64,000 nt of DNA from Promethearchaeota archaeon (GCA_011364925.1 RDOA01000002.1:32001-96000), one strand, 5' to 3'; positions 37,926-59,289 are shown, numbered from the stretch's first letter. Notes: generated by a model from the sequence alone, not told the origin. A program made the numbers and translations.

Positions 37926-38180
37926 TTATGTCTCATCGTCTTGAGACGAAAATTCCCCTGTTAAACTTTTCGCAAGCTTATTCCCAACATCAAATAGGCC
38001 CTTCATTGACTTATAGAATATGTCTCCAATAAGTTCACTCATTTTCTTATCTGGCTCGAAACAGACTTCACAATCATTGACATCGTTTAACTCTTGTATT
38101 AGATCAGCTTTTCTTTGCGCAAGCTGTTCATTAAGTTCCTCCAAATTGATTTTAATATTCTCCTTTTCTTGATTTTCCAT
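37926..38180 (-). CDS. Small acidic hypothetical protein (CxxC), last gene of the lipid cluster
   Basis: Starts 16 bp after the PlsC-like gene; GAGGT upstream; coiled-coil then CEVC. Confidence 0.7.
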   Translation of the reverse strand: MENQEKENIKINLEELNEQLAQRKADLIQELNDVNDCEVCFEPDKKMSELIGDIFYKSMKGLFDVGNKLAKSLTGEFSSQDDET

Positions 38181-38196
38181 TATTTTTACCTCGTTG

Positions 38197-38904
38197 TTAT
38201 TCTTCTATTGGGTGAACTTTAAGCGAATCAATAATATTAATTATATCTTCAGCAAGTTCGTACCGCTCATCGCGATATTTTTCACGATTTAATCGTTTTT
38301 CAACCTTAAGCGGGGTACCAATTTTAACTCTGATTCCCGTTGTGTTAAACATGCCAAGAACCCTCGCTTTTTCGGTGTAGATCGCTAAAGGAATTATCGG
38401 TGCCATTCCTGCAACTGCGAATTTAATAATTCCCGCCATGGCTTTTACTTGAACTTCTGGCGTTAACTTGGATTCTGGCGTCATAGCCACAAGATCCCCT
38501 ACCTCGTTAAGATAATGAAACACCATATCAATTGGAACAGTATCATCTTTATCAAGAGTACTACGGAACATTCCTAAATTTTTCAAAACAGGTCCATATA
38601 TTTGATGTTTCATTAACTTGTGATGAACCATAAAATGGATTCTACGTCCGGTAACCTGGCTAATAATTGCCATGTCTCTTAGTGCGTTGTCGCTTATCGT
38701 AGTCAAAATGGCCTTACCCTTAACTGGCACATTTTCTCTGCCCTCTATCTTCAAGTCAGCGAAAGCTCCTAAGCCAAAACCTCCAATTCCTTTTGTAACT
38801 GCGTATAACACATCTTTCATTAAATCCGTACTGAAAATCTTATCCTTTCCTTTCGTTTCTTTTTCTTCTTTTACTTCTTTTTCTTCTGGTATTGTTTGAA
38901 CCAT
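38197..38904 (-). CDS. PlsC-fold acyltransferase homolog with degenerate catalytic motifs
   Basis: IEGRENVP..GKAIL, RRIHFM, APIIPLAI, VKIGTP; HX4D replaced by TISDNALRD and FPEGTR by MTPESK. Confidence 0.8.
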   Translation of the reverse strand: MVQTIPEEKEVKEEKETKGKDKIFSTDLMKDVLYAVTKGIGGFGLGAFADLKIEGRENVPVKGKAILTTISDNALRDMAIISQVTGRRIHFMVHHKLMKHQIYGPVLKNLGMFRSTLDKDDTVPIDMVFHYLNEVGDLVAMTPESKLTPEVQVKAMAGIIKFAVAGMAPIIPLAIYTEKARVLGMFNTTGIRVKIGTPLKVEKRLNREKYRDERYELAEDIINIIDSLKVHPIEE

Positions 38905-38916
38905 TCTTCTTCCACC

Positions 38917-39111
38917 TTATAGTCTATCTATAAAATTATTCACTTCCTCCATCCGTTTCTCGTAGTATTCTTTTAACTCTTTCTCAGAAACAAACGTAGG
39001 AATTACTTTTTCTAAATAAATATCAAAAATCGTTGATAACTTGGTTTTATGTTGAATTGACTCAAGAAATTCCTCTCCTAAGTGCTTTAGTTGATTAAAA
39101 AAGTCTGACAT
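38917..39111 (-). CDS. Small hypothetical protein (64 aa)
   Basis: Tightly packed between activase and PlsC-like genes; amphipathic helical pattern. Confidence 0.65.
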   Translation of the reverse strand: MSDFFNQLKHLGEEFLESIQHKTKLSTIFDIYLEKVIPTFVSEKELKEYYEKRMEEVNNFIDRL

Positions 39112-39132
39112 CTCTTTATCATCTTTTTTATT

Positions 39133-40158: not shown

Positions 40159-40293
40159 TTTTACTCACCATTAAACCGAATTTTGTATTAATTGATTCGT
40201 TACGAATTCTGTATTATTTTTAATTTCTTTATTTTTACGAGCGGGCAAATTATACAATGTTTTGTTATTTGAGAAAGAAAATAAGACGAATAA

Positions 40294-40359
40294 TTTTACT
40301 TAATTAACTATTTAATCAAAAAAAAAACAGTTTAAAATAAAAATTTACCCATTATAAAC
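40294..40359 (-). promoter_or_regulatory. Shared cluster promoter, copy 1 (box B 40294-40320; core 40333-40359)
   Basis: + strand TAAAATAAAAATTTACCCATTATAAAC, one mismatch to the copies at 45656 and 50697. Confidence 0.7.
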
Positions 40360-40601
40360 CGATTATTAAAAGTATTACTATAATTATACACATTTTTGAT
40401 CCTCATTTTGTTCGAATCTTGATTAGTCTTCATTTTCGATAAATTTCCTTGTCCGTAGTTACTACTTCAATGTAAGTCATATACTTATTTTATCGAAGTC
40501 ATTTAAATAGTATAATCTTATTCATCTTCCTTATAAAATTTTACACATATTTTTAAAACTTAATTTTCTGATTAGTATTTAAAATTAAATAAGATGAATT
40601 T

Positions 40602-41225
40602 ATGATGGAAAAAATAATTAATCTTGATTTAAAAGCAAAAGAGAATATAATTATCGCTAGTAAAGAAGAACTAGTTGCCTTAGAATTAAATAAGTTAGCT
40701 AAAAACCTCTTGAAAAGAGTGAAAACAAGAAAGAATTTTGCGGAAAAAGAGATAAAATTAGCTGAAATTAGAAAAAGTATGGTTGAAAATAACTACAAAT
40801 TATTAGAAAACAAAATTAATTCAAGGGAGATACTAGACTTTTCGGAGGATGTAATAAAAAAAGAACGGGAATTTATAGATTATCACGAGAAAATCGCTGA
40901 AAATCAACTAAATTTAGCAAAACTACATAAAGAAATAGCAGAACTTGAAGAAAAATTAGCGAAAAGTAAGATAATTTTAGCAAATTCTAAACTAAATGTC
41001 GCTAAAACTCGTCTTAAGATAGGTAAGTTGCAACAAAAGTTTGTAAATGTTGTTCAAAAGAAAACACCTGAAAAAGCTAAGATAATAAAACATCTATATA
41101 AGGAAGAAGAAGAAAAATTAAATCATCAACTCAAAGATGTAATCGAAAAAGAAAATCAAGTTAAAATGTTTCAAAATGATATCGCAAAGATAACAAATAA
41201 ACTCTCCCAGACTCTGACAAATTAA
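40602..41225 (+). CDS. Coiled-coil hypothetical protein
   Basis: K/E/L-rich heptad pattern throughout. Confidence 0.7.
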   Translation: MMEKIINLDLKAKENIIIASKEELVALELNKLAKNLLKRVKTRKNFAEKEIKLAEIRKSMVENNYKLLENKINSREILDFSEDVIKKEREFIDYHEKIAENQLNLAKLHKEIAELEEKLAKSKIILANSKLNVAKTRLKIGKLQQKFVNVVQKKTPEKAKIIKHLYKEEEEKLNHQLKDVIEKENQVKMFQNDIAKITNKLSQTLTN

Positions 41226-41261
41226 ATAAACTCAATTTTTAGTTAATTATTTTGAAATGAC

Positions 41262-41738
41262 CTATTCTCTAATTATTAAAACATCACAAGGAACATGTCT
41301 TAAAACTTTCTCTGCTACATTTCCAAGTAAGATTTCTTCAAGAAGAGAATGAAGACCTTTACTTCCAATTATAACAAGATCAACTTGCTCTTTTTTAACC
41401 ATTTCTTTAATATAAGATACAGGACCATATTCAAAAATTAATCGAGTTTCCACTTCTGATCCTGCTTCCATAAAAAGATTCTTAGCTCTATCTAAAATTG
41501 CTTGGCCATTTTTTTCATATACTTCTCTTATCCGTTGAATATCAGGATCTGAAATACTATAGACGTAAGGAATATTATAAGATGGTCCCATAAACATCCC
41601 TCCAGGTTCTGCATGATACTCTACTGAATGAAACACGATCACCTTACTTTTAGCTGATTTTTGAAGTTCGATTGCTTTTAATATAGCCTTGTAAGAAGAT
41701 TCTGATCCATCAATGCCAATTAATATTTTCTTATAAAT
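41262..41738 (-). CDS. Universal stress protein (UspA family); start extended beyond the ORF track
   Basis: In-frame upstream extension reads (I/M)YKKILIGIDGSESSYKA; GSKG...LLGNVAEKVLRHVPCDVL; the only plausible start is ATT at 41738 behind AGGTGA. Confidence 0.85.
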   Translation of the reverse strand: MYKKILIGIDGSESSYKAILKAIELQKSAKSKVIVFHSVEYHAEPGGMFMGPSYNIPYVYSISDPDIQRIREVYEKNGQAILDRAKNLFMEAGSEVETRLIFEYGPVSYIKEMVKKEQVDLVIIGSKGLHSLLEEILLGNVAEKVLRHVPCDVLIIRE

Positions 41739-41904
41739 AATTCATCACCTTATTGAATATTTATTAATTAAAACAAAATTAGCTATTAAAATATTCTGGC
41801 TATAATTTTTAGAGAAAAAGATTAAGTAAAAAATCAATAATCAATAGTTAGATATTTCAGAATAGACCGAGTATTATGACGAATTATTATTTTAATAAAG
41901 GTGT

Positions 41905-42234
41905 ATGAAAATTACTGAGAATATTTATAGGTTGACATGGAGAAATAAATGGATTACTGCTCATGCTACTTCGATTGATGACTTTATCGAAACATTTGAG
42001 AATTTGGCAAAAGAATTTAGAAGGTGGAAGGAATTAGGAATAAAGTTATATACAGATAGAGGTATAGGGGATGATTATGCTTCATTTATCACTGATGATA
42101 TGGATATTGCCATTAAAGCAGGATTCACATTCTATATGGGCGATGATAGAAAAAGAGAGTATCTTGAGCTGCTATCTGGGGGAGAAATTGAAGTTCCAAA
42201 AGAGAAACTCGAAAAATTAAGAAAAAAGGATTAA
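41905..42234 (+). CDS. Hypothetical protein
   Basis: 109-aa ORF with AAGGTG upstream; protein-like composition. Confidence 0.65.
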   Translation: MKITENIYRLTWRNKWITAHATSIDDFIETFENLAKEFRRWKELGIKLYTDRGIGDDYASFITDDMDIAIKAGFTFYMGDDRKREYLELLSGGEIEVPKEKLEKLRKKD

Positions 42235-42395
42235 TACTTTGAAATTTTAAAATTTTTCCCGAAGTAATAAATTTATAGTCTTCCAATCTTAGAATAGGTT
42301 AGATTAAAACCCAACAGCTACAAAAAAATCAGTGGACCTGACTATTCGAAATTTCTTCATAAAAGTCCCTAATTAGAAAAAATTAGAAATGAGCA

Positions 42396-43430
42396 TTAAT
42401 AGTAATCAAGATTATTAGATTTCGTATCGCAAAACTCCTTAAGCTTCAGGACTTCCCATTTATACTCTTCAAGTTTAATAATATATACCCCTTCAACGCT
42501 ATCCTCAATAGGATATCCCCTTCCTTGAGTCCATCTAATATTCGAAATACGTATTTCGTCTCCCACATGAATTAAATCCCAGAATAGTCCCGCACAGCAT
42601 CCCAGATGCCCACAACCTCTAACTACTATACAATCATCCTCCCAATCGTCATTGTCGCTCTCTGAGAGAATATTTTCTGTTATACCTTTTACAAGCGCGT
42701 TTATATGTATAACAGGAAAGGGTTCATAAATGAGACAATACTCGCCTAGATAAATTTCAATGTACCCTGAAAACGCACTCGCCGAGATTGCTTTGATATT
42801 TTTGATAAAAATTCTAAAAGTTTTGTCCGTATTCTCATAAATAGGTTTTCTTTCTAGTAATTTCCTCTCATGCCCCTCTACAGTCCAATCCACGAGTCCG
42901 AGTGATAGGAACATTTTGAATCGCTTTGGAAAGGCTTCAAATGGGATTTTTGGTTCCAGATGGAAAGGTGATAATAAAATAACTCCATCATCAGTATCAA
43001 AGGCAGGACCACCATCTGGGTATAGAACTAATTTTCTCCTTTTCCATTTAGGATCACGGAAATATTTTGGAATAAATGTTCCTTCTATTATAAGTGCTGA
43101 AGGTCCCAATTTTTTCAAAGGAGTCGTCCTAAGATTGTTTTTTTTTACTTTTTCCTCCCTTTTCCGTTCCAATTCTTCAACCACATCGAATTGATAGTAT
43201 TCTCCCTCCAGTTCAAAGGGCGAGTTGTTTTCGGGCATCAATCTATATTCTGATATCGGAGAGCGAAAACCAGAGAGTAGAACATCAATTTCTTTTCCTA
43301 CAAAATCCTTCATATCTCCATCTTTATATAATTCTGATTCTAATGTAATAACTTGTCCACTAGTCAATCGAATTGTTATTAGTATTACTTCATTTTCAAT
43401 CTCTTTGGTATTCTCAAGGAGGACTTTCAT
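42396..43430 (-). CDS. Hypothetical protein (C-terminal CGHLGCC)
   Basis: 344-aa ORF; no family recognised. Confidence 0.65.
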   Translation of the reverse strand: MKVLLENTKEIENEVILITIRLTSGQVITLESELYKDGDMKDFVGKEIDVLLSGFRSPISEYRLMPENNSPFELEGEYYQFDVVEELERKREEKVKKNNLRTTPLKKLGPSALIIEGTFIPKYFRDPKWKRRKLVLYPDGGPAFDTDDGVILLSPFHLEPKIPFEAFPKRFKMFLSLGLVDWTVEGHERKLLERKPIYENTDKTFRIFIKNIKAISASAFSGYIEIYLGEYCLIYEPFPVIHINALVKGITENILSESDNDDWEDDCIVVRGCGHLGCCAGLFWDLIHVGDEIRISNIRWTQGRGYPIEDSVEGVYIIKLEEYKWEVLKLKEFCDTKSNNLDYY

Positions 43431-43529
43431 TAATTAACCACTTTTACATCATATTTTCCATAAATTTCAATTTTTTAATAGGAAAGGTATTTTTATAAAT
43501 GAAAATAATATTTTAGATAATAATTAGAA

Positions 43530-44417
43530 ATGTTCAAAATAAATAAGTTCATCACGCTTGAACTTCGAAACGGAAAGACAGTTATTTTTTTGGATAACTC
43601 TGAATTTGCAATTTGTATGGGTGCAAGCATTAATACTATTTTAAGGGACCTAGCATACGGTTCCGTTGATAAAACAATTGAAGATTTGGATATGAGATCT
43701 TTTGTTTCGTTAAGTCCAGAAGAAGAGTATTGGGTGCACTGCTCTAATTTACAAGCGTGGAGCGAAAATAATTACGACACGAGATTAATTCATCCAGATC
43801 TTTCTTTCCCTTTATTGAGAGAGTTAGTACAACTAGGCGACCCCAAAGCGTTAGAAGTGTTTAAGGATGAACTCGTTAAAAAATTTAAAAGCAATCACAT
43901 GCCGACAGTTATATTTTTACTTCAGGGTGGCTATTTAGATGAATTTACTGACGAAGAATTTGAAGTTTTGATGACTGAAGTAAAGGAAAAGATTTATACC
44001 TACGAGATTGACACTCAAGATAAAATTGTTTTGGATATGGTGTTCGAAGGCGAAGATTATGATGAGGTTCCACCGCTCGAGCGCTTCAAACCGAGGGCGA
44101 TACAATTTTTAATGGAACACCCAATAATAAACTTATTCGAATTGTTAGTTAAGTTTGGATGTTATTACCTTAAAGCCTATTACCCGTGGATTTTTAAGTT
44201 CTTTGGTTGCCTTAAAAAGAAGGAGCCTGAGCTGTTTAAGAAAAAAGTGGAATTGCTTTTGAAAAAGGGTTATAAACTTATTCCAGCAACAGTGGAATAC
44301 TCCGAGAATATTGGAGATTACACATTTCATGACAAACGGTCCGATTATTCGGAGATGGACGAGTTTGCACAAGTGTTTTACTATAGATATCTAAGAGATT
44401 ATAATTTCAAAAGTTAA
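43530..44417 (+). CDS. Lokiarchaeal-type conserved domain protein (domain commonly found N-terminal to LRRs)
   Basis: FKINKFITLEL...SPEEEYWVHCSNLQAWSENNYDTRLIH..LSFPLL..L...GDP.A..VFK.E. Confidence 0.7.
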   Translation: MFKINKFITLELRNGKTVIFLDNSEFAICMGASINTILRDLAYGSVDKTIEDLDMRSFVSLSPEEEYWVHCSNLQAWSENNYDTRLIHPDLSFPLLRELVQLGDPKALEVFKDELVKKFKSNHMPTVIFLLQGGYLDEFTDEEFEVLMTEVKEKIYTYEIDTQDKIVLDMVFEGEDYDEVPPLERFKPRAIQFLMEHPIINLFELLVKFGCYYLKAYYPWIFKFFGCLKKKEPELFKKKVELLLKKGYKLIPATVEYSENIGDYTFHDKRSDYSEMDEFAQVFYYRYLRDYNFKS

Positions 44418-44419
44418 AA

Positions 44420-45604
44420 TTATTCGGTAATAATCTTAACGCACTCGTTATAGAAAGAGTCGCCGTAGTAAGGATAAATTTTCCGATTCCCATTTGCTTG
44501 GAATTCTTTGTTTTTTTCTATTTCCTTTTTCCTCCTACCATGCATAAGGTCTGCGAACGCCTCTAATCGCGTGCGGAAACCTTCCATACCTGATTGTTCA
44601 TCGAAGGAGAAATAAATTATTGGGAGATCGTAGATTTTCTTGAGTTTATTGGTTATAATCGTGCGAGCTACGACCTCAGGCATACATAAAAAGGGATACT
44701 CATGGACGAAACCATCAAATCCAGCCAGCGCCTTGTCGATATACTCCCCAAGCACCCACCTCGCCTCTCCACCGCAGTCTAACGGTAAATATGGACGCGA
44801 AAGATGCTCCAACCATTTTCTGTGATAATTTAGATGAAATTTGTGGACAACCCAATCATACAAGCTTAGAGATTGGTGAATTTCGATTCCCATCTCACCT
44901 AGCTTTCTTCTAATGTCAAGGTTAACGTAAGGTTCCAAGCTTATATGAATCTCGCCCGATATCCCTACTTTTAACGGAGTTCGAGTTTTATCGATATCCA
45001 GACCATTAAAATCTTGTTTAATAACATTTTTAAATTTCCTTAACTCGGGGAGCGTATTAGCCTCGTCGAGCTTTGTTAGCAGACCATTTACAATGTCTGT
45101 AGTGTCTCCTTGATTTCGCTCGTACGCTCGGAATAGCCCCTCTGCCGTCTGGATGTCGTTGAGTAATTTAGCCTTCTTTAGGAAAAATATGATGGCTTTC
45201 ACAAACTTCGAATAAACGAACAAATCACTCCGACCACTTATTTCTTGAAGCGTTTTAACCCAATGAAACTCAAGTAAATCGGCCTGATCCAAGGGGACTA
45301 CCGTAATATTCTTGTATCCCATATCCTTTAGAATTCTCTCCTGCACAGAAGCATAAAATCCGAACCTACAAGGTCCACAGTCGATCGCCATGACTAATGT
45401 ATCTGCTCCCTTCTCGATGGCATTGACAAAATCCCCTATTGTCGCCTTGAATGGAAAACAAACGAACTCTGGAGATTGCTTAACGCCGATTTTGATTGCC
45501 TCACGATTTGTTGGATCAGGAACGACCACATCTAAATCAAGGCTTGTAAAAAGTGTTTTAAAGGCAACCCAGTTTGGGCCCATATTAGGGAAGGAGATTA
45601 ACAT
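44420..45604 (-). CDS. PlsR-like/HgdAB-like reductase subunit 2, set A
   Basis: SPEFVCFPFK, CGPCRFGFY, GEIH, PFLCMPE, SFDEQSG..GFRTRLEAF. Confidence 0.85.
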   Translation of the reverse strand: MLISFPNMGPNWVAFKTLFTSLDLDVVVPDPTNREAIKIGVKQSPEFVCFPFKATIGDFVNAIEKGADTLVMAIDCGPCRFGFYASVQERILKDMGYKNITVVPLDQADLLEFHWVKTLQEISGRSDLFVYSKFVKAIIFFLKKAKLLNDIQTAEGLFRAYERNQGDTTDIVNGLLTKLDEANTLPELRKFKNVIKQDFNGLDIDKTRTPLKVGISGEIHISLEPYVNLDIRRKLGEMGIEIHQSLSLYDWVVHKFHLNYHRKWLEHLSRPYLPLDCGGEARWVLGEYIDKALAGFDGFVHEYPFLCMPEVVARTIITNKLKKIYDLPIIYFSFDEQSGMEGFRTRLEAFADLMHGRRKKEIEKNKEFQANGNRKIYPYYGDSFYNECVKIITE

Positions 45605-45619
45605 CTTAAATCTAAGAAA

Positions 45620-45685
45620 TTTTACCTAAGTCAAGTATTTGATCAAAACATGGTTTAAAATAAAAATTTACCCCTTATAAACAAA
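45620..45685 (-). promoter_or_regulatory. Shared cluster promoter, copy 2 (box B 45620-45647; core 45656-45685)
   Basis: Minus strand GTTTATAAGGGGTAAATTTTTATTTTA with TATA-like TTTATAA; identical to 50697-50726. Confidence 0.75.
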
Positions 45686-45779
45686 ATATTAATCATGTGT
45701 TATTTTTAATAAAAAATGGGAGCAATAATAATAAGATAGGATGCAAAAATTAATATTCCAGATAGTTCCAAAACTCGAA

Positions 45780-47105
45780 TCAAGATACCAGATTTTTCCA
45801 TATCGAATTTCTTGAAAAGAACTCAAGTCCGTTCTTAACGGCGAATCCTACATCTAATTTCTTTGATGGATTCAGCATAGTTAAAACCTTTGACATTGGT
45901 GTTTCAATACTAGAAACAAAATAATCAAAATTAGATTTCGGCTTAAAATATATACTTTTTATTTCATCCGGGATCACATACTTGACATCTTTAAACAAGG
46001 GATTAGCATTCTTGTTGCCGACCATTAAATCATGAAATGCTTCGATTCTTGTTCTAAGTCCTTCAAAACCAGAACTTCCATCAAGACTAATATGAATTTG
46101 GGGCATGTAAAACTTGTCCATGTTTTTCTCAGCCTCTAGCATTCCCATGAGGGATATTTCAGGCATGCAAGTGAAGGGAAAAATGTGGACATAGCCGTCG
46201 AACCCTTTTTCTTGACACTCAAGATAACTCCCCATGTTCCAGATCATCTCCCCACCAACATCCATTGGGACATAATTTTTTGCCCTTTTTTCAAGTCGTC
46301 TTCTTCGTTGGCTGGCGTCAAGTTTGTACATAACCCAATCAAAGACATCATACTGCTTGTGAACCTCGATACCCATGACGCCTAATTCTCCCATCAGATC
46401 ATAATTAACCCATTTCTCCAACATGACTTGGATTTCCCCAGTATAACAAACCCTCAAAGGTTCCATTTCCTTGTCAATAGGAATCTTGCGAAAGTGTTCA
46501 TCTATCGTTCTATCAAAATTAGATAATTTCATCAAATTGTATTCGTTATCAAGTAAATTCATCAAAGTATGAACTACTTTGGTAGTCATTGCTTTGGTTT
46601 TTTCCCGACATCTAACAAGTCCTTCAATATGGCTGATTCTTTCAACATAGTATGCTTTGATTAAGAACAAGAGTGTGTTTCTTAAAATTTTATAGTCATC
46701 AATTTTTCTTCCTGTTCTTTTTTCTAAATCATGAAACATCCTTAGCCATTCAAGATTTCGGAAATCATCTTGATTCAGATAAAACATTCTAACATCATTG
46801 AATCCCATGTTTTTCAAGATCCTTTTCTGGACAACAGCATAAATTCCTGCTCGACAAGGACCGTGATCAACAATCATCGCAAAATCTTTGACGTCATAAT
46901 TACGATACAGGTTTATCATTTCACCAAGAATGACTTTAAATGGAAAACAAACGAATTCAGGAGAAACTTTGACTCCTTCACTAACGATGTCAGTGTTTAC
47001 TAAAGGTGGTTCAACAACTTCAATACCAGGAAGATCATAGAATAAACCTTTGAAAAAAATATAGCTCCAACCCATTCGTGAAAATGCAATTCTGACATTT
47101 ACCAT
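45780..47105 (-). CDS. PlsR-like/HgdAB-like reductase subunit 2, set B
   Basis: SPEFVCFPFK, HGPCRAGIY, GEIQ, PFTCMPE, GLRTRIEAF; overlaps the end of the activase gene. Confidence 0.85.
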   Translation of the reverse strand: MVNVRIAFSRMGWSYIFFKGLFYDLPGIEVVEPPLVNTDIVSEGVKVSPEFVCFPFKVILGEMINLYRNYDVKDFAMIVDHGPCRAGIYAVVQKRILKNMGFNDVRMFYLNQDDFRNLEWLRMFHDLEKRTGRKIDDYKILRNTLLFLIKAYYVERISHIEGLVRCREKTKAMTTKVVHTLMNLLDNEYNLMKLSNFDRTIDEHFRKIPIDKEMEPLRVCYTGEIQVMLEKWVNYDLMGELGVMGIEVHKQYDVFDWVMYKLDASQRRRRLEKRAKNYVPMDVGGEMIWNMGSYLECQEKGFDGYVHIFPFTCMPEISLMGMLEAEKNMDKFYMPQIHISLDGSSGFEGLRTRIEAFHDLMVGNKNANPLFKDVKYVIPDEIKSIYFKPKSNFDYFVSSIETPMSKVLTMLNPSKKLDVGFAVKNGLEFFSRNSIWKNLVS

Positions 47106-50640: not shown

Positions 50641-50645
50641 AGAAG

Positions 50646-50973: not shown

Positions 50974-52383
50974 TTACAACAAGTTATCTGACTTCTTCAT
51001 TAGTTCATTCTTCTTTTTACGCAGTCTTTTAGCCTGGACTGCGATAGTTTCAAGAAGTCTTATTTGGTTAGAGGCTAACCATGGGCCTTCACAATCCACG
51101 GCAGCGTATGGAACATCACTCTTATTGGCCAAAGGTCTTATGATTGCTTGAGAATTCATAGCAGGTTGGCAATTAAATGTTCCAAGGTTTATTAAGCCAT
51201 CGTAAATGTTTTCCTTAAGAGAATACAAAAACCTACCAACAATTTGTGGTGTTTCAGTCATACTGTTTGAGGATACATATTTATTACCTTCTTCTAGGAG
51301 TTTATCAATTTCGATATAGGAATCGAACAATAATCCTGATCTACTCATTATTCTTCTGTACATCTTACATTGAGTATCAATAAAATTTATCATACTCTTG
51401 GTTCTTTTCGCTCTTACTGCCTCTTTTTGTTCTTTTTCGTTTAATTCAGAAAAATTAATTAAGGCCTCATCGAACTGATCTTTTGGGGTGAGAAGTCCTT
51501 TACTAAACCCAAACCTTATTGTATTTTCGGACAAAAGTAAAGTCATCCCTTCTGAAACATCAGCAACCTTTGTTATAATTCCTTTCTGAAGGAAAAATTC
51601 TTCAATTGGATAATGATCAAACATTAAGTTCAATCCCCCAAAGATTAAAATTTTAGTAGTCTCTTCGACTTTAGCTTTTAAAGGGATTTTCGCAACTTCT
51701 TTTGCCCACCTTACTAAACCAGTTTTTATGGTTTTTTCCCCCATTCTCACGCTTTCAATGAAGTTGGTTGTAATTTCTTCGAAAGTGTTCAAAGCAGAGT
51801 ATTCATCCTCAGCCGTACATCGTAGGGCGTTCCGCGCTTCAATTATATACTGTCCGATTATAAAATTGAGCTTTTCTTGCGCAATAAAGTCTTTATTCAA
51901 TCCTAGATAATTATTATAATAATTAGGTATCTGGTAGAATAACACATTTTTCAGATTCAGTCGTTTTGAAAAGTTTTTCCATATAACTGGCCATGCACCA
52001 TTCTGACACGGGCCATCTTGATCTATGGGAGTAATATAAATAGTGATCTCGTTTTCAGATCTATTCTCATGAATATCTTTCAATATCTCACCAGCAATAG
52101 CAACACACGCAAGACATTCTCTTCCAGAACAGATCTTCTTACCGTATTGTAGAGTGGAGGTGTTAGTTTCTTTGCTGATACGGACATTCTTATTGTGTGA
52201 AGCGTACAAATCTTTAACAAGACGTATCCCATAAGAATTTCTTGGTTCTGGCAAAACATAGACAATTCTTGGATCACTAAAGTCAACGCTATTTCCATCG
52301 CTGTCTATAATAGAACCATTATGAACTTCAGCCGATTTTACTTTTTGAATATCTTCGATTTTAAATTTCTTTATATCAGACAT
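50974..52383 (-). CDS. PlsR-like reductase subunit 2, set C
   Basis: SGRECLAC, DGPCQNGAW, ET...VG, FNCQPA, AAVDCEG; 17 bp downstream of the PlsA-like gene. Confidence 0.8.
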   Translation of the reverse strand: MSDIKKFKIEDIQKVKSAEVHNGSIIDSDGNSVDFSDPRIVYVLPEPRNSYGIRLVKDLYASHNKNVRISKETNTSTLQYGKKICSGRECLACVAIAGEILKDIHENRSENEITIYITPIDQDGPCQNGAWPVIWKNFSKRLNLKNVLFYQIPNYYNNYLGLNKDFIAQEKLNFIIGQYIIEARNALRCTAEDEYSALNTFEEITTNFIESVRMGEKTIKTGLVRWAKEVAKIPLKAKVEETTKILIFGGLNLMFDHYPIEEFFLQKGIITKVADVSEGMTLLLSENTIRFGFSKGLLTPKDQFDEALINFSELNEKEQKEAVRAKRTKSMINFIDTQCKMYRRIMSRSGLLFDSYIEIDKLLEEGNKYVSSNSMTETPQIVGRFLYSLKENIYDGLINLGTFNCQPAMNSQAIIRPLANKSDVPYAAVDCEGPWLASNQIRLLETIAVQAKRLRKKKNELMKKSDNLL

Positions 52384-52400: not shown

Positions 52401-55334
52401 CTAGCTTGTTAATTCAAATTTTTTACGTCGTTCTTCAATTATATCAAGAAATGCTTCTACCCGTGTTTCAAAACCAGCATGTGCAGTATGTGAATCAATC
52501 TCAAGATAACAAAATGTAGATCCTGCAAGCTCCTGTCGAAATTGATGATACATTGTACCGTCAGGACCACAAGAAAAACAGGAAACCATACAAATATAGA
52601 CATTTGGATTTTTTTTTGCGAAATTTACTGCATTATCGATCTGTTGAGTAAAAAGCCATGCATTTCGTTCATGATTAGCCGTTAGTAGTGGTAAAATATC
52701 AACTGGAATAGCATGATATCCTCTACTTGCAATTTTCTGAGGAAGTGCAATATTAATATCATTAGGATAGATTACATAAGGTCTTCCAGCAATTATTACA
52801 CTTGGTTCCTTGATTAATTTATCTAGTAGTTTTTCTCCTAACTCATGATACTTCCGAATAAACTTTTTATAATGAGAAAAAGCCCGTTTACCTGCTTCTA
52901 TTCCTACACTCCTTTCTAATCCGAGTTGAATCGCAACTTGCCCCAATTCTTGTAATGTTGTTTGTAAATATCGTTTCGATGTGCTTATATGAGGTGCTAA
53001 AATTCTATCTTGCTCGTTCTCAAACGCAGCTCGAACAACATCAGATATAACAGCTGTTGAGCTGCAGGTATACCCGTGAAGATATCCATCTGTAGGTTCG
53101 AATTCAAAAGTTCGAGGTAAAAATATATATTCGATTCCTTGGTTGATAAGATCTAGTACTGCTCCATGCGTTAATTCACCAGGATAACATATCGATGCCA
53201 ATGTTTTAGTATTTCCTAATGTATTTGATTTTGATAACACTACATCGAATCCCAATTCATTAATAAATTTGGTATAAAAGGGAAAAAGTGAATGTGTAGT
53301 TAAAACCATTGGTAAACCAATAGATCCTAGTGAATTTTTAAGAGCAGTTGGTCCAAATTCATCGTAAATCATTGAGTTCCTTATCTCTACTAGATTTTTA
53401 CCTAGTTTTATCTTTTTGCCTCTCTGACGCAATAGCTTGTATTTTGAACATAATCCACCAAACGGATAGGTATTGCCTCTTATGGAAATGTTTTGGATCT
53501 CGCAATTGTTTTCACATGCATTACACCTAAATGTGCTCTTTACTTTCATCTCTCCATGTAGAAGATCCCTTAAATTAAAATTATGTTCAGAGATTTCTTC
53601 GTTTCTTAAAAGATCGAGAGCCATTAGAGCAGAACCTATACTTCCCATAAGCTCGGGATGGGCTGGAACAATAATTTTTCGTTGAACTCGATCAGCAATG
53701 GCTAATGCAACAGCTTTATTTAAAGCAAGGCCTCCCAGAAATAAGATATTTTCACCAATTTGGCGGGATCCAATGATCCTCGAAATATAATTATCAGCAA
53801 TTGAATAAACAAGACCTGCAACAACATCCTCTCGTTTAGCGCCTTGCTGTAGTGCGTTTCTTAAATCAGTATTAATAAAAGCTGCACATCTTTCCCCAAA
53901 TGAAATTGGCTGAGAGCTGGTTAGAGCAATTTCACTGATTTTTTCGACTGGAATCCCCATATCTACTGACGCAGATTCTTCTAAAAAACTCCCAGTTCCG
54001 GCAGAACACCCTTCATTCATAGCATAATCAATAGGAACACCTTTTAAAAAGGAAATAAATTTTGAATCTTGCCCACCAATTTCAAAGACAGTATCGATTC
54101 CAAGTAATTCTTCCGTAGCGGATCGTGCGTGAGCTAATATTTCGTTAAAACTTCGACAATTATCCAAATACACTGAAACCATTTCTCTCGCTGACCCTGT
54201 TACACCGCATTGAATTATATTAATCGTAGTATTGCCAATTTGTTCTAAAAGTATCTCTAGACACTGTTTTGTTGATACAATGGGATTCCCTAAAGTTCTT
54301 AAATACGCACTAGCTCCAATGGAACTATCTTTTACATTGAATAGAACTGCTTTTGTAGTAGTTGATCCGGCGTCTAAACCTAATATATAGGATCCATTTT
54401 TAACAATTCTCATTTTAGTAGCTGGTTCTACTCGATAATCTAATAAATTTTCAATACTGGTAAGGGTTTTAGTAGTTTCAAAGACCGACTCCTTTTGTTC
54501 AATCAAATTTTCACTCCTTTGAGTATCATTTTGAATCTCAGACGCATATAGAGCCGCTCCAAAGACTTCAAGAAATGGGCTTTCTGATAAAACTTCAATA
54601 TCAGAGGATGGAAGAAAGTTTTGCATACTTTCGATAAAATACTTATTTAAAGAAACCCCACCCGTGATAACTATTAAATCAGTTGGCCATTGAGCACTCT
54701 CAATCATTTCACTCACTTTTCTTGCTAAATCGTGTATTAATGTTTTTGCGATGTCTTCTTTTTTACATTCTCCTTTGTTAAGTTTATGCGTCGCGTCAGA
54801 TTTACAATGCACCGAACATCGAGTTGCTAATTGAACTAACTGCCCCTTTGAACTTTCCTCAATTCCCTGCTTTACAGAGAGACCCATCCTTTCAAGTTGC
54901 TGGACGATAAATTCTCCTGTTCCAGCGGCACATTTAGAGGTTGAAATAATATTCTTAATAACGCCATTTTTCATTGGGTATATACTAAATGTTTCGCCTC
55001 CTAAAGAAAGAAGTAAATCGGGTTTTAAATTATAATATTGCAGTGCTTTTTCAAAGCATTCTACTTCAGAATAATAGGGAAAATCGAAAAATTGTTTTGC
55101 AACATTTCCTGTCATAACGATATTTGAATCACCATTGGTATTATGACGTTTAAAAATCTCTCTAATTTTTTCTCTAGGGAAACCCTCATGACGCAAAACT
55201 TCATTTATTATCGTTCCGTCTTGGGAAATTCGAACCCATTTTACAGAAACCGCCCCTATCTCTAATCCCTCATAATACTTATACTTGTACGAGACTTCTT
55301 TTGTGAAACTTTCGTTTGACATTAGGATCATCAA
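52401..55334 (-). CDS. PlsA/Ger-like protein: activator 1 - activator 2 - DUF2229 reductase 1, set C
   Basis: Act1 KCAAGTGEF/RCSVHC; Act2 GLDAGSTTTK, EIGGQDSK, NEGCSAGTGSFLEE, RCAAF; CNACENNC; Red1 CYPGE.THG, GRPY, CFSCGPD, EIDSHTAHAGFETRVEAF. Confidence 0.88.
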   Translation of the reverse strand: MMILMSNESFTKEVSYKYKYYEGLEIGAVSVKWVRISQDGTIINEVLRHEGFPREKIREIFKRHNTNGDSNIVMTGNVAKQFFDFPYYSEVECFEKALQYYNLKPDLLLSLGGETFSIYPMKNGVIKNIISTSKCAAGTGEFIVQQLERMGLSVKQGIEESSKGQLVQLATRCSVHCKSDATHKLNKGECKKEDIAKTLIHDLARKVSEMIESAQWPTDLIVITGGVSLNKYFIESMQNFLPSSDIEVLSESPFLEVFGAALYASEIQNDTQRSENLIEQKESVFETTKTLTSIENLLDYRVEPATKMRIVKNGSYILGLDAGSTTTKAVLFNVKDSSIGASAYLRTLGNPIVSTKQCLEILLEQIGNTTINIIQCGVTGSAREMVSVYLDNCRSFNEILAHARSATEELLGIDTVFEIGGQDSKFISFLKGVPIDYAMNEGCSAGTGSFLEESASVDMGIPVEKISEIALTSSQPISFGERCAAFINTDLRNALQQGAKREDVVAGLVYSIADNYISRIIGSRQIGENILFLGGLALNKAVALAIADRVQRKIIVPAHPELMGSIGSALMALDLLRNEEISEHNFNLRDLLHGEMKVKSTFRCNACENNCEIQNISIRGNTYPFGGLCSKYKLLRQRGKKIKLGKNLVEIRNSMIYDEFGPTALKNSLGSIGLPMVLTTHSLFPFYTKFINELGFDVVLSKSNTLGNTKTLASICYPGELTHGAVLDLINQGIEYIFLPRTFEFEPTDGYLHGYTCSSTAVISDVVRAAFENEQDRILAPHISTSKRYLQTTLQELGQVAIQLGLERSVGIEAGKRAFSHYKKFIRKYHELGEKLLDKLIKEPSVIIAGRPYVIYPNDINIALPQKIASRGYHAIPVDILPLLTANHERNAWLFTQQIDNAVNFAKKNPNVYICMVSCFSCGPDGTMYHQFRQELAGSTFCYLEIDSHTAHAGFETRVEAFLDIIEERRKKFELTS

Positions 55335-55479
55335 ATATTATTGGATAATTGTTTAAAATCTTCTCAAAGGGAGTACCGAATTTAATTTAATTCCAAATTT
55401 AGAATATCTATTCAATAATTCCTTAGTTTATCTAAATTGCTTAAAATTATGATATAATGGTTAAGCACATATGGTTATA

Positions 55480-55526
55480 TTTTACTTAGATACTTATTTA
55501 ATCAAAATTGAAGTGTTGTATATAAA
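55480..55526 (-). promoter_or_regulatory. Promoter of the PlsA-like gene with box B copy 4 (55480-55506) and TATA-like TTTATATA (55519-55526)
   Basis: TTTTACTTAGATACTTATTTAATCAAA matches box B of the other three units. Confidence 0.55.
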
Positions 55527-55715: not shown

Positions 55716-56792
55716 CTATACTTCTTGTTTTGAGCGAATAATTAAATGTTGCTTTTGGTTTAAGTCCTTTCTTCTTTTCTTTCTTCTAATCATTTCAACA
55801 AAACTTTCTACTCTTGTCAATAATCCAGCTTCTCCCGAATGTTCATCCATCGTAATCTCCAAGAAAGGAAGTCCAACAACTTTCATATCGCGCATGATTA
55901 ATTCTGAAATTAGACTATCTGGACCACAAGCAAAACTTATTAAGAAAATAACTCCATCAATTTCGTCTCGACCTTCAGTGAGGAAATATCGGATGCTTTG
56001 CATGATTTCTTCTTCATGGCGCCAGTAATTTCGAAGTTTCCCACCTTTTGGGTTGACGATAACAGGTTTCTTAAAAATGAATTCTGGTAAGTTTTCGATA
56101 GTGATAACTTCTACTCCTTGATCTTGTAACTTTTTCTGAAAATCAAGGTTGATGAAAGTATCGAATATGTTGTAAGCATGTCCTAATAGTAAAAACTTTA
56201 TATCACCAGTGAGTTTTCTCTTAGGTAAGGTAAAAGAGCGATTCCTTTCAGCTAACCGTAGTGCATAATTGACCGAAGCGCCGTTTCTCAAAAATTCGTG
56301 ATACTCGTCAAAATACCTTTGGGCTTCTCTATACGCGTTTAAAGATTGATTTTGAGTTTTTCCTAACTGACTACCGAGTTCAATTGCGGCTGCTGATATA
56401 GGAAACTCTTTAACATTTACCTCAAAGTTCAAAATTTTTGGAACTCCCGGTAAAATTTTAATTACATCGGGTAATGATAAGAATTTTGGGCAAAAATACG
56501 AATCTTTTGTTTCAGAAACATATCTCGGTACAAAAATATAGTCTAAATCAGGGTGTTCTTCTATTAGTTTGATAACTTGTCCGTAGTAAATCTTAACGGG
56601 AATGCATAACTCTCCAAATCCATGAGTTACGCCTTCCTCAACTATTTTTTTGTTTGTAAGGGGACTTATAACGATTTCGGCATCTAGCTCTTCTAAGATC
56701 TTTTTCCAAAACGGAAAATACCTGTAAAAATGAAGCGCTCTCGGTATCCCCACTTTGAATTTTTTCTTAGTGGACGGTTGTGGAACTTCCAT
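55716..56792 (-). CDS. Stand-alone DUF2229 reductase domain 1, set A
   Basis: VGIPRAL, CIPVKIYYG, CPKFLSLPD, GHAYN, SFACGPDS, MDEHSGEAGLLTRVESF. Confidence 0.88.
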   Translation of the reverse strand: MEVPQPSTKKKFKVGIPRALHFYRYFPFWKKILEELDAEIVISPLTNKKIVEEGVTHGFGELCIPVKIYYGQVIKLIEEHPDLDYIFVPRYVSETKDSYFCPKFLSLPDVIKILPGVPKILNFEVNVKEFPISAAAIELGSQLGKTQNQSLNAYREAQRYFDEYHEFLRNGASVNYALRLAERNRSFTLPKRKLTGDIKFLLLGHAYNIFDTFINLDFQKKLQDQGVEVITIENLPEFIFKKPVIVNPKGGKLRNYWRHEEEIMQSIRYFLTEGRDEIDGVIFLISFACGPDSLISELIMRDMKVVGLPFLEITMDEHSGEAGLLTRVESFVEMIRRKKRRKDLNQKQHLIIRSKQEV

Positions 56793-56813
56793 GTTAACAC
56801 ATCCCCTTAAGTT

Positions 56814-58493
56814 CTATGCATCTGGGCTATCATAAAGCAATAAATCTTTAATTTGAGCCATCATATTGGCAGTTAGACGCTTTAATTCTTCGTAGTCCGG
56901 CATAGGTTTACCCCAATATTTTTTGTGCTCCATGAATAAAGGTCCTGCTTTTAAGATATGACCTGTGTAGAAATTCAACATTTTCGCGTGTTTGGGATAG
57001 ATGTCTTCCGTTCCCGTTATCCCGATCAGTACGATTGGAACTTGTTTTTCGATCGCTAAACGCATCGCTCCGGTGTGACCCTCCAATAGTTCTCCGCCAC
57101 CAGGATTAGTAGTTCCCTCAGGATAAACTACACATAATTCTCCTTTGTCCAATACACTTTTTGCGTAATTGAATGAATCTATATCGTGTTGACCGCGTTT
57201 AAGTGGGAAAGCGTGATGGTTTCTAATCCACGCGTTAACAAGCGGCGGTTTGAATAAGGTTTGTTTTGCCATCTGATATAAAACCCGTTTACTATGATAG
57301 ATTAAACTCGTTGCTAAGATAATTACATCCCATTCAGAATTGTGGTTAGTGCACACGACAGCAGCTCCTTCTTCGGGTATATATTTTTCGAAATCAATTA
57401 CTTTATAGGGCATCATCAGTTCACACCAATTGTGGACTAACCAACCCGAGAAGTTTTGGACAGTTCTCTGAAATTGATCTCGAACTCCAAAAACCTCCAA
57501 TGTCTTTAAAAACGAATACCATATATCGTCGAAAAGTTGTAATGTACCTATTCCAACATCTTTTAAATAACCCTTGAAGGAGAACGAATCTTTAGGTTTT
57601 TGGGCGTCTTCTGGAGAACCGATTGATAATTCCTCTTCTTTCTTTTGCTTTCTCGGATCTACAATAACGTAATCTCGCAAATCTAGTACTACTTGACGTA
57701 ATTCAGTGGTTAGTCTTTTTATTTCTTCGTATGATACTTTGTTAATATCGTATTTGTCGTAATATATTGGGTCTCCTACGCGCACTTTAACTTGAGTTGG
57801 CTTCATTACAAGTTTGCCTTTGGGTAACGCATTTCTCGATCCTATAACTGCCATAGGAACTATAGGTACTTTCGTCTCAATGGCTAGTCGAACCGCTCCT
57901 GTTTTAAATTCTCCGAGCTCCCAACCTGTCTCTTCTCGAGATCGTGTCCCTTCAGGGAAAATGCCAACCCACTCTCCATTACGTATAATCTCCTTAGCTG
58001 TCTCCCACCCTTGCTCAGGATTTTCTCGGTCTAATTTAAACGCTCCGAGATTAGTAAATAAGGTTCTTACTAAAGGAGTTTTGAAATTGTCCAACTTACT
58101 CATGTATCGGATTCGTCTGTGGCACGCAGCACCATAGAAGAACGGGTCTAAATGGCTTTCATGGTTTCCCACTAGGATGCCCGGACCATATTCAGGGAAC
58201 ATATTCCCTTGTGGGTATTCTGCTTTAAAATTCCACAAAAGACGAGCAAAAAACTTAATATAGATAAACGCAGCCCACCATTGGAGTTGTCCTTCAATAT
58301 CTTCAACGTCTAATCGTTTAATAGCTTTGCGGTAAAGGTCGTTTAAGGGATCAATAGGATTATACTTTAATACCTTATAAGTTGCGTTTTGATGTCGTTT
58401 TCCGAAGTCTAATTCTTCTTGTTCCTTTTCTTCAGTAGTTTTAACTAAACGCGTTTCTTCAGTAGTTTTAAATTCTTCTTCTTCTAGTACCAT
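56814..58493 (-). CDS. plsC: Tandem double-domain PlsC-family glycerolipid acyltransferase
   Basis: Domain 1 NHESHLD...FPEGTRS; domain 2 NHNSEWD...YPEGTTN; both HX4D motifs intact. Confidence 0.93.
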   Translation of the reverse strand: MVLEEEEFKTTEETRLVKTTEEKEQEELDFGKRHQNATYKVLKYNPIDPLNDLYRKAIKRLDVEDIEGQLQWWAAFIYIKFFARLLWNFKAEYPQGNMFPEYGPGILVGNHESHLDPFFYGAACHRRIRYMSKLDNFKTPLVRTLFTNLGAFKLDRENPEQGWETAKEIIRNGEWVGIFPEGTRSREETGWELGEFKTGAVRLAIETKVPIVPMAVIGSRNALPKGKLVMKPTQVKVRVGDPIYYDKYDINKVSYEEIKRLTTELRQVVLDLRDYVIVDPRKQKKEEELSIGSPEDAQKPKDSFSFKGYLKDVGIGTLQLFDDIWYSFLKTLEVFGVRDQFQRTVQNFSGWLVHNWCELMMPYKVIDFEKYIPEEGAAVVCTNHNSEWDVIILATSLIYHSKRVLYQMAKQTLFKPPLVNAWIRNHHAFPLKRGQHDIDSFNYAKSVLDKGELCVVYPEGTTNPGGGELLEGHTGAMRLAIEKQVPIVLIGITGTEDIYPKHAKMLNFYTGHILKAGPLFMEHKKYWGKPMPDYEELKRLTANMMAQIKDLLLYDSPDA

Positions 58494-58506
58494 TTTTTAC
58501 ACACTT

Positions 58507-59289
58507 TTAGGATTTTATTTTTACACTATTTTTAGTGCTCGAATCGGATATATTCTTTTTTTCAATTAACTTTTTTAATTCCTCTAGTGAATCAATTAAT
58601 AAATCGGGTTCGAATTCTGCTAACATCTCTTTTTTACTAACACCGCTTGCGACTCCGATCGTCCAAACTCCAGCTTCTCTCCCAGCTTGGATATCTGAAG
58701 GCATATCCCCAATCATTACAAACTCTTTCAAATTACACGATTTGTAAGTCTCGAAAACGGGATTTAGAGCTGTTGGATCGGGTTTCAAATTAGGGAGAAG
58801 ATCAGCTCCAAAAACACCTTTAAAAACGCTTTTAACCTTGTTTTCTTCAAGATGAGGAATGATATTCTTAGTCTGATTATGTGATACGATAAAAAAGTCG
58901 TACGATTTCTTGTATTTACTAATGAAATCGGTTGCTTCGGGGTAAAAGGGTGCTTCTTTAGCTAATGTTAAGTATCGAGTAAATATTTTTACCGCTATTC
59001 TTAATTTTTTAAAGAATGTTAATGATTGGAGCGAAGTAATGTATTTAAACAATTCAAAAGATTCTAATATGATTTTAGGAAGTGGCGTTCCTTGGATTAT
59101 CTCCATTAAAGCTCCGATCTCTTGCATCGTAGTTTCAATATTGGTCTTAATCTGCTTCTCTTCGTAGACTTCTTCTATTGATTTCTGAAGTGATTCTCTT
59201 ATATCGAGGACAGTTCCGTCAAAATCGAAAATAATACCTCGAATTGTCCCATTTTGAAGCCGCTTTACTAATTGATTGTCAGAGATCAT
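58507..59289 (-). CDS. HAD-superfamily phosphatase (Gph-like), first gene of the lipid operon
   Basis: FDFDGT, VSH, KPDP, IGDMPSD...G..AG; 13 bp upstream of the double PlsC. Confidence 0.92.
   Translation of the reverse strand: MISDNQLVKRLQNGTIRGIIFDFDGTVLDIRESLQKSIEEVYEEKQIKTNIETTMQEIGALMEIIQGTPLPKIILESFELFKYITSLQSLTFFKKLRIAVKIFTRYLTLAKEAPFYPEATDFISKYKKSYDFFIVSHNQTKNIIPHLEENKVKSVFKGVFGADLLPNLKPDPTALNPVFETYKSCNLKEFVMIGDMPSDIQAGREAGVWTIGVASGVSKKEMLAEFEPDLLIDSLEELKKLIEKKNISDSSTKNSVKIKS

Follow-up and report, generated by a model that had tools for sequence, protein, structure and literature searches.

A PlsC-linked radical reductase operon of Lokiarchaeia as a candidate 'esterify, then reduce' ether-lipid pathway

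Gene content and organisation of the cluster

We analysed a gene cluster located at positions 37926-59289 of a 64,000-nucleotide (nt) stretch of DNA (the window; GCA_011364925.1 RDOA01000002.1:32001-96000, i.e. G000:C38:32001-96000) from the genome of a Promethearchaeota archaeon (3.9 Mb, 112 contigs); close relatives of its proteins are labelled Promethearchaeota or Promethearchaeia. The cluster combines PlsC acyltransferases with putative radical reductases carrying the DUF2229 domain, and we assessed its content, its conservation among Asgard genomes and its possible role as an ether-lipid operon. An earlier reading made from the sequence alone (the original prediction) had described 13 co-oriented genes in this region. 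All 13 minus-strand open reading frames (ORFs) were recovered, the domains and motifs claimed for them were borne out by Pfam, NCBIfam and motif reading, and the only break in the run proved to be a strain-specific insert at 40.6-44.4 kb. The features are, in order of transcription and with protein lengths in amino acids (aa):

58507..59289, minus strand: HAD-IA type phosphatase, 260 aa; PF13419 (HAD_2) at 83 bits; DFDGT and GDMPSD motifs; first operon gene in family f1
56814..58493, minus strand: tandem PlsC/AGPAT acyltransferase, 559 aa; two PF01553 stretches, 184 bits; TIGR00530 at 159.7 bits against a cut-off of 102.95
55716..56792, minus strand: set C Red1, standalone DUF2229 subunit, 358 aa; DUF2229 at 155 bits; Cys 63, 101 and 289 invariant; Clade I of the tree; part of the putative ancestral core
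52401..55334, minus strand: set A Act-Act-Red1, 977 aa; two PF01869 domains and DUF2229; PlsA/Ger-type architecture
50974..52383, minus strand: set A Red2, 469 aa; partner of the 977-aa protein; shares the invariant Cys of Red2
48127..50640, minus strand: set B FAD_binding_4 (about 1-490), charged linker and DUF2229 Red1 (about 491-837), 837 aa; domains from Pfam
47099..48130, minus strand: set B activase, 343 aa; PF01869 at 161 bits; CX2CX3C...C module; overlaps of 4 and 7 bases with its neighbours
45780..47105, minus strand: set B Red2, 441 aa; 39% identical to set C Red2; three invariant Cys
44420..45604, minus strand: set C Red2, core partner subunit, 394 aa; invariant Cys 49, 79 and 307; AlphaFold model with pLDDT 86.6
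40602..44417, mixed strands: insert splitting set C, with ORFs of 207, 126 (Usp), 109, 344 and 295 aa; GC low point of 27%
40293..40392, upstream of the set C activase: promoter-like repeat pair (29-nt box and 60-nt A/T-rich element); repeat families D2, D6 and D9, 70-87% identity
39133..40158, minus strand: set C activase, HgdC-type ATPase, 341 aa; PF01869 at 163 bits; TIGR00241 at 199 bits; module of Cys 305, 308, 312 and 334
38917..39111, minus strand: conserved 64-aa protein; found at the equivalent place in family f1 loci, with 55-80% identity; no family match
38197..38904, minus strand: PlsC paralogue without catalytic His, 235 aa; PF01553 at 30 bits; ISDNALRD/TPESK
37926..38180, minus strand: 84-aa ORF, weakly conserved and of doubtful membership; match in G083 only (44% identity)

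The reductase genes were assigned to set A (977 + 469 aa), set B (837 + 343 + 441 aa) and set C (358 + 394 + 341 aa); genes are spaced by 12-21 bp or overlap within units, and units are 175-381 bp apart. Pfam and alignments agree with the predicted three DUF2229 (Red1) domains, four activase domains and three Red2 proteins. The DUF2229 domains of the 358-, 977- and 837-aa proteins score 155.4, 133.9 and 155.2 bits, respectively (Pfam gathering score 29.4), and the four BcrAD_BadFG activase domains found by Pfam are distributed as two in the 977-aa protein and one each in the 343- and 341-aa proteins. The Red2 proteins (469, 441 and 394 aa), whose Pfam matches are weak or absent, can be aligned with one another. 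Three Cys residues are invariant in each Red1 and each Red2 of the three sets, a pattern that we read as putative ligands of an iron-sulfur cluster, and the C-terminal CX2CX3C...C module of the 343- and 341-aa activases is the counterpart of the linker between Act2 and Red1 in the 977-aa protein. All DUF2229 and PF01553 matches of the entire 3.9-Mb genome are confined to the cluster, a co-location that exceeds chance by far.

As predicted, both domains of the double PlsC read as intact (NHESHLD/FPEGTRS and NHNSEWD/YPEGTTN, i.e. HX4D and PEGT in each). The proposed PlsC pseudo-enzyme was recognised in the 235-aa paralogue, in which the catalytic His is lost: ISDN or ISKN stands in place of NHxxxxD in the four family f1 genera checked (4/4). 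In family f2, PlsC is present as two separate genes and not as one fused gene, and the second of them carries a Phe where the catalytic His is expected in G089, which belongs to the genus of Candidatus (Ca.) Harpocratesius repetitus. The 260-aa protein matches the HAD profile and contains the DxDxT and GDxxxD motifs, every specific NCBIfam equivalog model remaining far under its cut-off. Its orthologue lies directly upstream of the double PlsC in L001, L004, L006, L020, L021, L030, L051 and L119, and the family f2 version of the operon has no HAD gene.

Relation of the reductases to known enzymes

In line with the original prediction, the reductases fall in the DUF2229 (PlsA/Ger) superfamily and are not HgdAB or Bcr proteins proper: DUF2229 scores 134-155 bits, against at most 30 bits for HGD-D, whose matches (27-30 bits) cover the last 60-80 residues only and are never full-length. 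For the 394-aa Red2, the AlphaFold model resembles the double-cubane cluster protein, the BzdNO/MbdON benzoyl-CoA reductases and 2-hydroxyisocaproyl-CoA dehydratase (probability 1.0, TM 0.5-0.56), and this Red2 shows the fold of ATP-dependent radical reductases and dehydratases. The 2-hydroxyacyl-CoA dehydratases (HadBC/HgdAB), class I benzoyl-CoA reductases (BzdNO, MbdON) and the double-cubane cluster protein share this Red2 fold, the activase family and the pattern of three Cys per subunit. They differ from the present proteins, however, by an identity of 12-15%, by the HGD-D match being limited to the C terminus and by the lack of a CoA-substrate context here; only the PlsA-like family, and not the CoA-type radical enzymes, has the N-terminal part of DUF2229 and the four-Cys tail of the activase.

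The likening of the three sets to PlsA/PlsR, implied by the original prediction, holds for set A only, i.e. the sole set with the PlsA/PlsR-Ger architecture (Act-Act-Red1 with an adjacent or fused Red2). Unlike PlsA/PlsR, sets B and C each have one separate activase and a Red1 that is standalone or FAD-fused, and they branch in another clade; DUF2229, the HgdC-type activase and the conserved Cys are nonetheless common to all three sets and PlsA/PlsR. Judged by architecture, set A has the same Act-Act-Red1 + Red2 organisation as PlsA/PlsR of Clostridium perfringens (Q8XL48/Q8XL47) and the fused PlsA known from Enterococcus and Lactococcus (domains named after PMC12838417). The same type of comparison likens it to Ger of Thermotoga maritima (Tmari_0479) and Desulfatibacillum alkenivorans (SHJ90043), which also has two activase domains and DUF2229, in a single fused protein whereas set A is split. 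According to the account of Jackson 2021 given in PMC9702350, PlsA/PlsR act on diacyl lipids, turning the acyl ester at sn-1 into a vinyl ether. When E. coli carries Ger of T. maritima or D. alkenivorans, 1-O-alkyl glycerols are formed, but only in the absence of oxygen (PMC13159169).

Sets B and C are 43% (Red1), 54% (activase) and 39% (Red2) identical and are paralogues; the Red1 of set A is distant, at 20-24% identity to theirs. The true start of the 837-aa protein may be an internal ATG; its N-terminal FAD_binding_4 domain had not been listed by the original prediction. For the 469-aa Red2, neither a Pfam nor a PDB sequence match was found; this type of Red2 always follows, or is fused to, a set-A-type gene (80 loci).

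Conservation of the PlsC-reductase linkage among Asgard genomes

Distribution was surveyed in a phylum sample (n=151 genomes) and an order sample (n=61 genomes). In the former, a set-C-type Red1 was found in 24/25 genomes of family f1, in 2/2 of family f2 and otherwise only in G031 (f16), and in all 27 of these genomes (26 classed f1/f2 plus G031) a PF01553 gene lies on the same contig within about 300 bp of it. The G031 case, a core Red1 88% identical together with a PlsC on a short contig (G031:C6:485-2152; genome 76% complete), is probably mis-binned. Families f14, f22 and f25 of the phylum sample contain PlsC; set-C-type Red1 was not found in them.

In the order sample, the PlsC-linked clade of reductases occurs in 37/41 f1, at least 12/14 f2, 1/1 f28 and 1/4 f29 genomes, and PlsC adjoins Red1 wherever contigs permit, except in G160. 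The only relative present in G159 belongs to the other three-gene clade, and 53 kb separate it from the closest PlsC gene; in G164 and G177, PlsC and the reductase are encoded on separate contigs, and G184 lacks both acyltransferases and reductases. The linkage put forward by the original prediction is thus real and conserved within the order (27/27 genomes, with f2 and f28), but it ends at the order boundary and belongs to set C, not to set A.

Three closed genomes were recognised by exact protein match: Promethearchaeum syntrophicum MK-D1 (G167), Ca. Lokiarchaeum ossiferum (G172) and Ca. Harpocratesius repetitus (G161). The MK-D1 operon reads PadR, PlsC (308 aa), Red1 (350), Red2 (419; DSAG12_00860 / QEE15037.1), activase (372) and a RagA-like GTPase; that of Ca. 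L. ossiferum (locus NEF87_002902) has the same core but two PlsC genes. The order PlsC then Red1-Red2-Act is therefore conserved across the order, including both cultured Lokiarchaeia. In relatives of the window, the set C activase immediately follows Red2, and the best 120 database relatives of the set C Red1 are 77-93% identical to it.

The putative ancestral core consists of one or two PlsC directly upstream of a three-component ATP-driven radical reductase, i.e. Red1, a homologous Red2 and an HgdC-type activase with an extra four-Cys module; in the window, the gaps at the PlsC adjacency are 13-21 bp. In family f1, the core further includes the HAD phosphatase, the fused double PlsC, the His-less PlsC paralogue and the 64-aa protein.

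Phylogeny of the DUF2229 domains

A quick IQ-TREE phylogeny was built from 62 DUF2229 domains, with SH-aLRT support only, drawn at midpoint with no outgroup root; its long branches (the fused S. ovata enzyme and some D. oleivorans copies) are unsafe. Standalone Red1 proteins make up group I, to which Sporomusa ovata contributes two and other Asgard archaea eight (families f5 and f27 and a second copy in G089 of f2); the PlsC-linked clade belongs here too. That clade (SH-aLRT 99) unites sets B and C with the proteins of family f2 and coincides exactly with the PlsC-linked systems. Group II contains the Act-Act-Red1 enzymes, i.e. the fused S. ovata enzyme (Pfam-typical, 282 bits), other fused bacterial and Asgard proteins of about 1400 aa and, apart from that S. 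ovata enzyme, the set-A-type clade (support 100), in which the Asgard copies form one monophyletic group (99) amid sequences of Desulfobacterota, Myxococcota, Bacillota and Spirochaetota. With four DUF2229 systems in S. ovata and five in a Desulfosudis metagenome-assembled genome (MAG), the family is multi-functional or at least multi-paralogous.

Activase-less PlsA homologues of Bacillota, to which an unknown role has been ascribed (PMC13274423), likewise consist of a standalone DUF2229 and a partner, and two S. ovata examples branch with the Asgard three-gene systems. The Asgard systems differ in carrying their own single activase and in adjoining PlsC in one order, and the PlsC operon would provide a first functional context for these standalone-DUF2229 'PlsA homologues' of bacteria.

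Build-up of the cluster and origin of set A

In G144 and G040, which represent another genus of the family, the core is contiguous: HAD, double PlsC, Red1 (358), Red2 (394), activase (341), 64-aa protein and PlsC paralogue. G109 has this core plus set B, without the 40.6-44.4 kb insert, which is missing between Red2 and activase in G109, G144 and G040; in G008, as in the window, core Red1 and core Red2 are separated by sets A and B. Compared in this way, sets A and B appear to be cassettes added later into the core. Further copies of the repeat pair lie at 45618-45715 and 50643-50756, and the box alone at 55479-55507, so that four units of the cluster are preceded by such elements; the recurring box and A/T-rich element would fit cassette insertion with duplication of a putative promoter.

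A bacterial origin of set A is suggested by three observations. Full-length set A is found in just 4/26 genomes of the family, the 977-aa protein is 58-62% identical to its closest bacterial relatives (Desulfobacterota proteins), and the Asgard copies nest in a bacterial clade; because of these, lateral transfer from bacteria into the archaeal family would be the most economical reading of a tree that is unrooted (no outgroup). The location of set A varies among Asgard genomes, i.e. after core Red1, after the set B Red2 or alone, often with fragments of core genes alongside. In contrast to bacterial set-A-type loci, the Asgard genes are operonic with PlsC and HAD; no such bacterial locus occurred among those examined, and no PlsC neighboured the bacterial set-A-type genes in about 50 loci.

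A candidate ether-lipid pathway and its alternatives

We propose, with a probability of roughly one half, that the cluster is an 'esterify, then reduce' ether-lipid operon of Lokiarchaeia. PlsC would attach an acyl chain, by an ester bond, to a backbone of glycerol phosphate or lyso-lipid, the HAD enzyme would remove a phosphate, and the activase would use ATP to drive a low-potential electron into Red1/Red2. These would convert the ester carbonyl, via a ketyl radical and a hemiacetal, to a vinyl or alkyl ether as in bacterial PlsA/PlsR and Ger. The DHCR24-like domain of set B could then saturate a C=C bond, e.g. that of a vinyl ether, and set A would represent a recruited bacterial enzyme pair of proven ester-reductase architecture. 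Gene content, intact motifs, fold, synteny, phylogeny and distribution are observed here, and we infer the acylation, dephosphorylation and ester-to-ether chemistry, already put forward by the original prediction, and likewise the substrate, the product and the chain type (fatty or isoprenoid).

Several results argue for the esterify-then-reduce reading. All PF01553 and DUF2229 genes share one cluster, PlsC adjoins the set-C-clade Red1 in every sampled genome that has it (27/27, and further in f2 and f28), and the PlsC-linked systems form one well-supported clade. The HX4D/PEGT and HAD motifs, the Cys of Red1/Red2 and the activase Cys module are intact; Red2 has, in the model, a radical-enzyme fold, and Red1 scores as DUF2229, the domain of PlsA/Ger (PMC13159169). 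Moreover, set A, with its proven architecture, landed in or beside the operon at several sites, and the flavin domain of set B resembles lipid C=C reductases and occurs in the order only as a fusion in this operon.

Other observations weigh against it. Sets B and C fall in a clade with no characterised member, and Ger and PlsA are not distinguishable from sequence (PMC13274423). An unlikely alternative is that the operon acts on PlsC-made lipids by another radical reaction (dehydration or reduction of the acyl chain, or reaction at another carbonyl), with no ester-to-ether conversion. The structural superfamily indeed spans dehydratases, arene reductases and small-molecule reductases, the Red1 proteins of sets B and C form a clade of their own at only 20-24% identity to set A, and a DHCR24-like domain would be equally suited to saturating chain C=C bonds; DUF2229, however, has so far been tied solely to PlsA/Ger chemistry (PMC13159169, PMC12838417), and a PlsA/Ger-type cassette was repeatedly recruited into this same operon.

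Genomic context adds to the unfavourable points. In families f5 and f27, three-gene systems (30-36% identity) occur as well as fused enzymes, and no PF01553 was found in the nine genomes checked; no PlsC lies near the S. ovata three-gene systems (n=2). One of these is placed between spoIIE and tilS, with housekeeping genes (spoIIE, tilS, ftsH) as neighbours, whereas the second is surrounded by genes for transporters, a B12-binding protein and other unrelated functions. No conserved neighbours were found for the PlsC-less three-gene systems. A tally of 101 neighbours of bacterial set-A-type genes revealed no recurrent family, no PlsC and no recurrent lipid genes, and in Sporomusa and Desulfosudis these genes directly follow a giant polyketide synthase; the reductase of that sub-clade may tailor a polyketide-derived lipid. 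The reductases might also use a non-lipid substrate (a fermentation acyl-CoA or an aromatic acid), the PlsC-like proteins acylating another acceptor or being linked by regulation only. We hold this explanation to be rather unlikely. Such a role would agree with the three-gene relatives in PlsC-free genomes, with the acyl-CoA dehydrogenases (3), CoA-transferases (2) and HGD-D proteins (2) among the 101 neighbours and with the NCBI name of the reductase proteins, 'acyl-CoA dehydratase activase(-related)'. It agrees poorly with a PlsC adjacency that is tight (13-21 bp) and kept in at least three families of the order, and with a double PlsC that exceeds the curated AGPAT threshold in a genome whose every PF01553 gene lies inside the operon.

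Lipid and genome data add two further unfavourable points. Phytane and biphytanes are the only lipids reported for MK-D1 (PMC11316595), which argues against abundant fatty-alkyl ethers in this strain; the method employed could have missed ester lipids (PMC13400652). G083 and G178, from the genus of the window and 100% complete, have HAD, double PlsC and PlsC paralogue adjacent to one another and no reductase or activase genes (L119, i.e. G083:C6:60000-79999, positions 8899-13424; G178:C14:48632-51420). Acyltransferases that persist without reductases also fit a role of the latter as optional tailoring enzymes downstream, as the esterify-then-reduce reading would have it, and both genomes are natural 'knock-outs' for comparative lipidomics.

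The salvage or remodelling of lipids from bacterial partners or detritus, in which PlsC would re-acylate, HAD trim and the reductases modify, in place of a de novo membrane pathway, seems improbable. These archaea are syntrophs and fermenters, the PlsY of the genome is a 407-aa protein beside an esterase-like gene, and MK-D1 has no reported non-isoprenoid core lipids; yet the conserved core holds no lipase, transporter or beta-oxidation gene, and a catabolic use of ATP-driven reduction would be costly.

Asgard archaea are the closest known relatives of eukaryotes, and their PlsC, PlsY and Ger homologues have been cited for years in lipid-divide arguments, where they were treated as isolated genes. 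PlsC and PlsY were reported in Loki- and Thorarchaeota (PMC6737245) and discussed since (PMC13400652), and Ger homologues in Lokiarchaeota, including MK-D1, and Heimdallarchaeota (PMC13159169); the published Asgard Ger matches derive from similarity alone and come with no operon context. A full-text literature search retrieved no paper placing Asgard PlsC genes and these reductases in one operon, and neither this link nor the three-component form nor the FAD fusion was found described in the literature searched. The presence of PlsC and a PlsA/Ger-superfamily reductase in one conserved operon of this lineage turns a gene list into a pathway hypothesis with named loci (DSAG12_00860, NEF87_002902), and the role of the operon in the lipid divide is open to bench testing, since both cultured Lokiarchaeia possess the core.

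The flavin domain of set B

The DHCR24-like FAD reductase family includes enzymes that reduce lipid C=C bonds. For residues 1-490 of the 837-aa protein, the best PDB matches are cytokinin dehydrogenases, over the FAD_binding_4 core. The domain is 42-53% identical to many standalone FAD oxidoreductases of bacteria and Asgard archaea, whereas a protein of Anaeramoeba flamelloides annotated, by automatic naming, as 24-dehydrocholesterol reductase shares 55% identity with it across 93% of the domain; among the ESM Atlas clusters nearest to the domain, one is named Delta(24)-sterol reductase (score 0.97), which we take as a lead only. The fusion of FAD_binding_4 to DUF2229 is confined to three protein clusters (88-92% identity). 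Within the lokiarchaeal order, the flavin domain was found solely as the operon fusion, in 17/61 genomes, all of family f1.

FAD_binding_4 is shared with the DHCR24-like reductases, i.e. sterol delta-24 reductase and the actinobacterial BfaA of 10-methylstearate synthesis (PMC5660069), from which the set B domain differs by its fusion to DUF2229; the likeness is drawn from annotated names. A 'yet-unknown enzyme' turning vinyl ethers into alkyl ethers has been called for (PMC13274423), and the set B fusion is a candidate for this missing reductase, discussed for the biosynthesis of branched glycerol dialkyl glycerol tetraethers (brGDGT).

The homologue of A. flamelloides, an anaerobic protist, is nearer to the set B flavin domain than nearly all prokaryotic standalone homologues; by sequence likeness, lateral transfer or an enzyme lineage shared by eukaryotes and Asgard archaea is possible.

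GGGP synthase and isoprenoid ethers

MK-D1 is reported to lack GGGP synthase, although it makes phytanyl and biphytanyl ethers (PMC11316595). Consistently, PF01884 (GGGPS; E <= 1e-5) was without a match in three closed genomes, i.e. those of MK-D1, L. ossiferum and H. repetitus; with these included, it was unmatched in 11/14 family f2 genomes, and it was matched in 40/41 of family f1. Because these three closed genomes carry the operon while MK-D1 makes such ethers, one could imagine a second archaeal route to glycerol ether bonds independent of GGGP synthase, in which an isoprenoid acid (phytanoyl, geranylgeranoyl) would be esterified and the ester reduced to an ether, set B saturating isoprenoid C=C bonds. 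We consider this highly improbable; its less far-reaching form, with fatty-alkyl or alkenyl ethers in an Asgard archaeon, is the esterify-then-reduce reading preferred above. GGGPS and the operon do not replace each other as a general rule, since both occur in family f1 (40/41 and 37/41) and in two f2 genomes, of genera g57 and g64. Searches of the genome of the window for G1PDH (PF13685) and GpsA (PF01210) returned weak, ambiguous matches only.

Neighbouring genes and minor observations

The sole PlsY-family gene of the genome encodes a protein of 407 aa (L120:4758-5981, in G000:C36) whose PlsY domain covers residues 20-192 only; it comes after a BD-FAE/esterase-like gene. The polyketide synthases preceding bacterial set-A-type genes are about 3250 aa long (KS-DH-KR-ACP-KS-ACP-terminal reductase) and end about 30-180 bp before the Act-Act-Red1 gene (L065:53-9817, Sporomusa ovata DSM 2662; L061:96-9974, Desulfosudis oleivorans MAG). 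The D. oleivorans MAG also has a divergent 253-aa typical PlsC (111 bits; L103:5707-6468) adjoining a fused 1425-aa DUF2229 enzyme, the sole PlsC-DUF2229 adjacency seen in bacteria.

No relatives of the 84-aa ORF were found in L003 or L018, and a PHROGs search of the small proteins and insert ORFs gave nothing useful. Usp is the only recognised domain among the insert ORFs. At its N terminus, the 295-aa protein of the insert (43530-44417) has 150 residues that belong to a family with no known domain and at least seven copies in the genome (39-48% identity), relatives lying on contigs C20, C22, C41, C45, C101 and C108 of G000. Members of this family also occur beside set A cassettes in two other MAGs (L021:4935-5776; L048:14641-15171), and it is possibly linked to rearrangements of the cluster. 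In relatives, contigs frequently break just after core Red1 or within the set B N terminus (G077, G117, G141, G188, G008), where repeats may have disturbed the assembly.

A gene for a Ras-family small GTPase lies at 60045-60587, upstream of the operon in family f1 (also in L020, L024, L051 and L119), and a Gtr1/RagA-like gene directly follows the operon in MK-D1 and L. ossiferum (L123:3171-4112; L122:4277-5233); in GTPase-rich genomes, such flanking genes may be due to chance.

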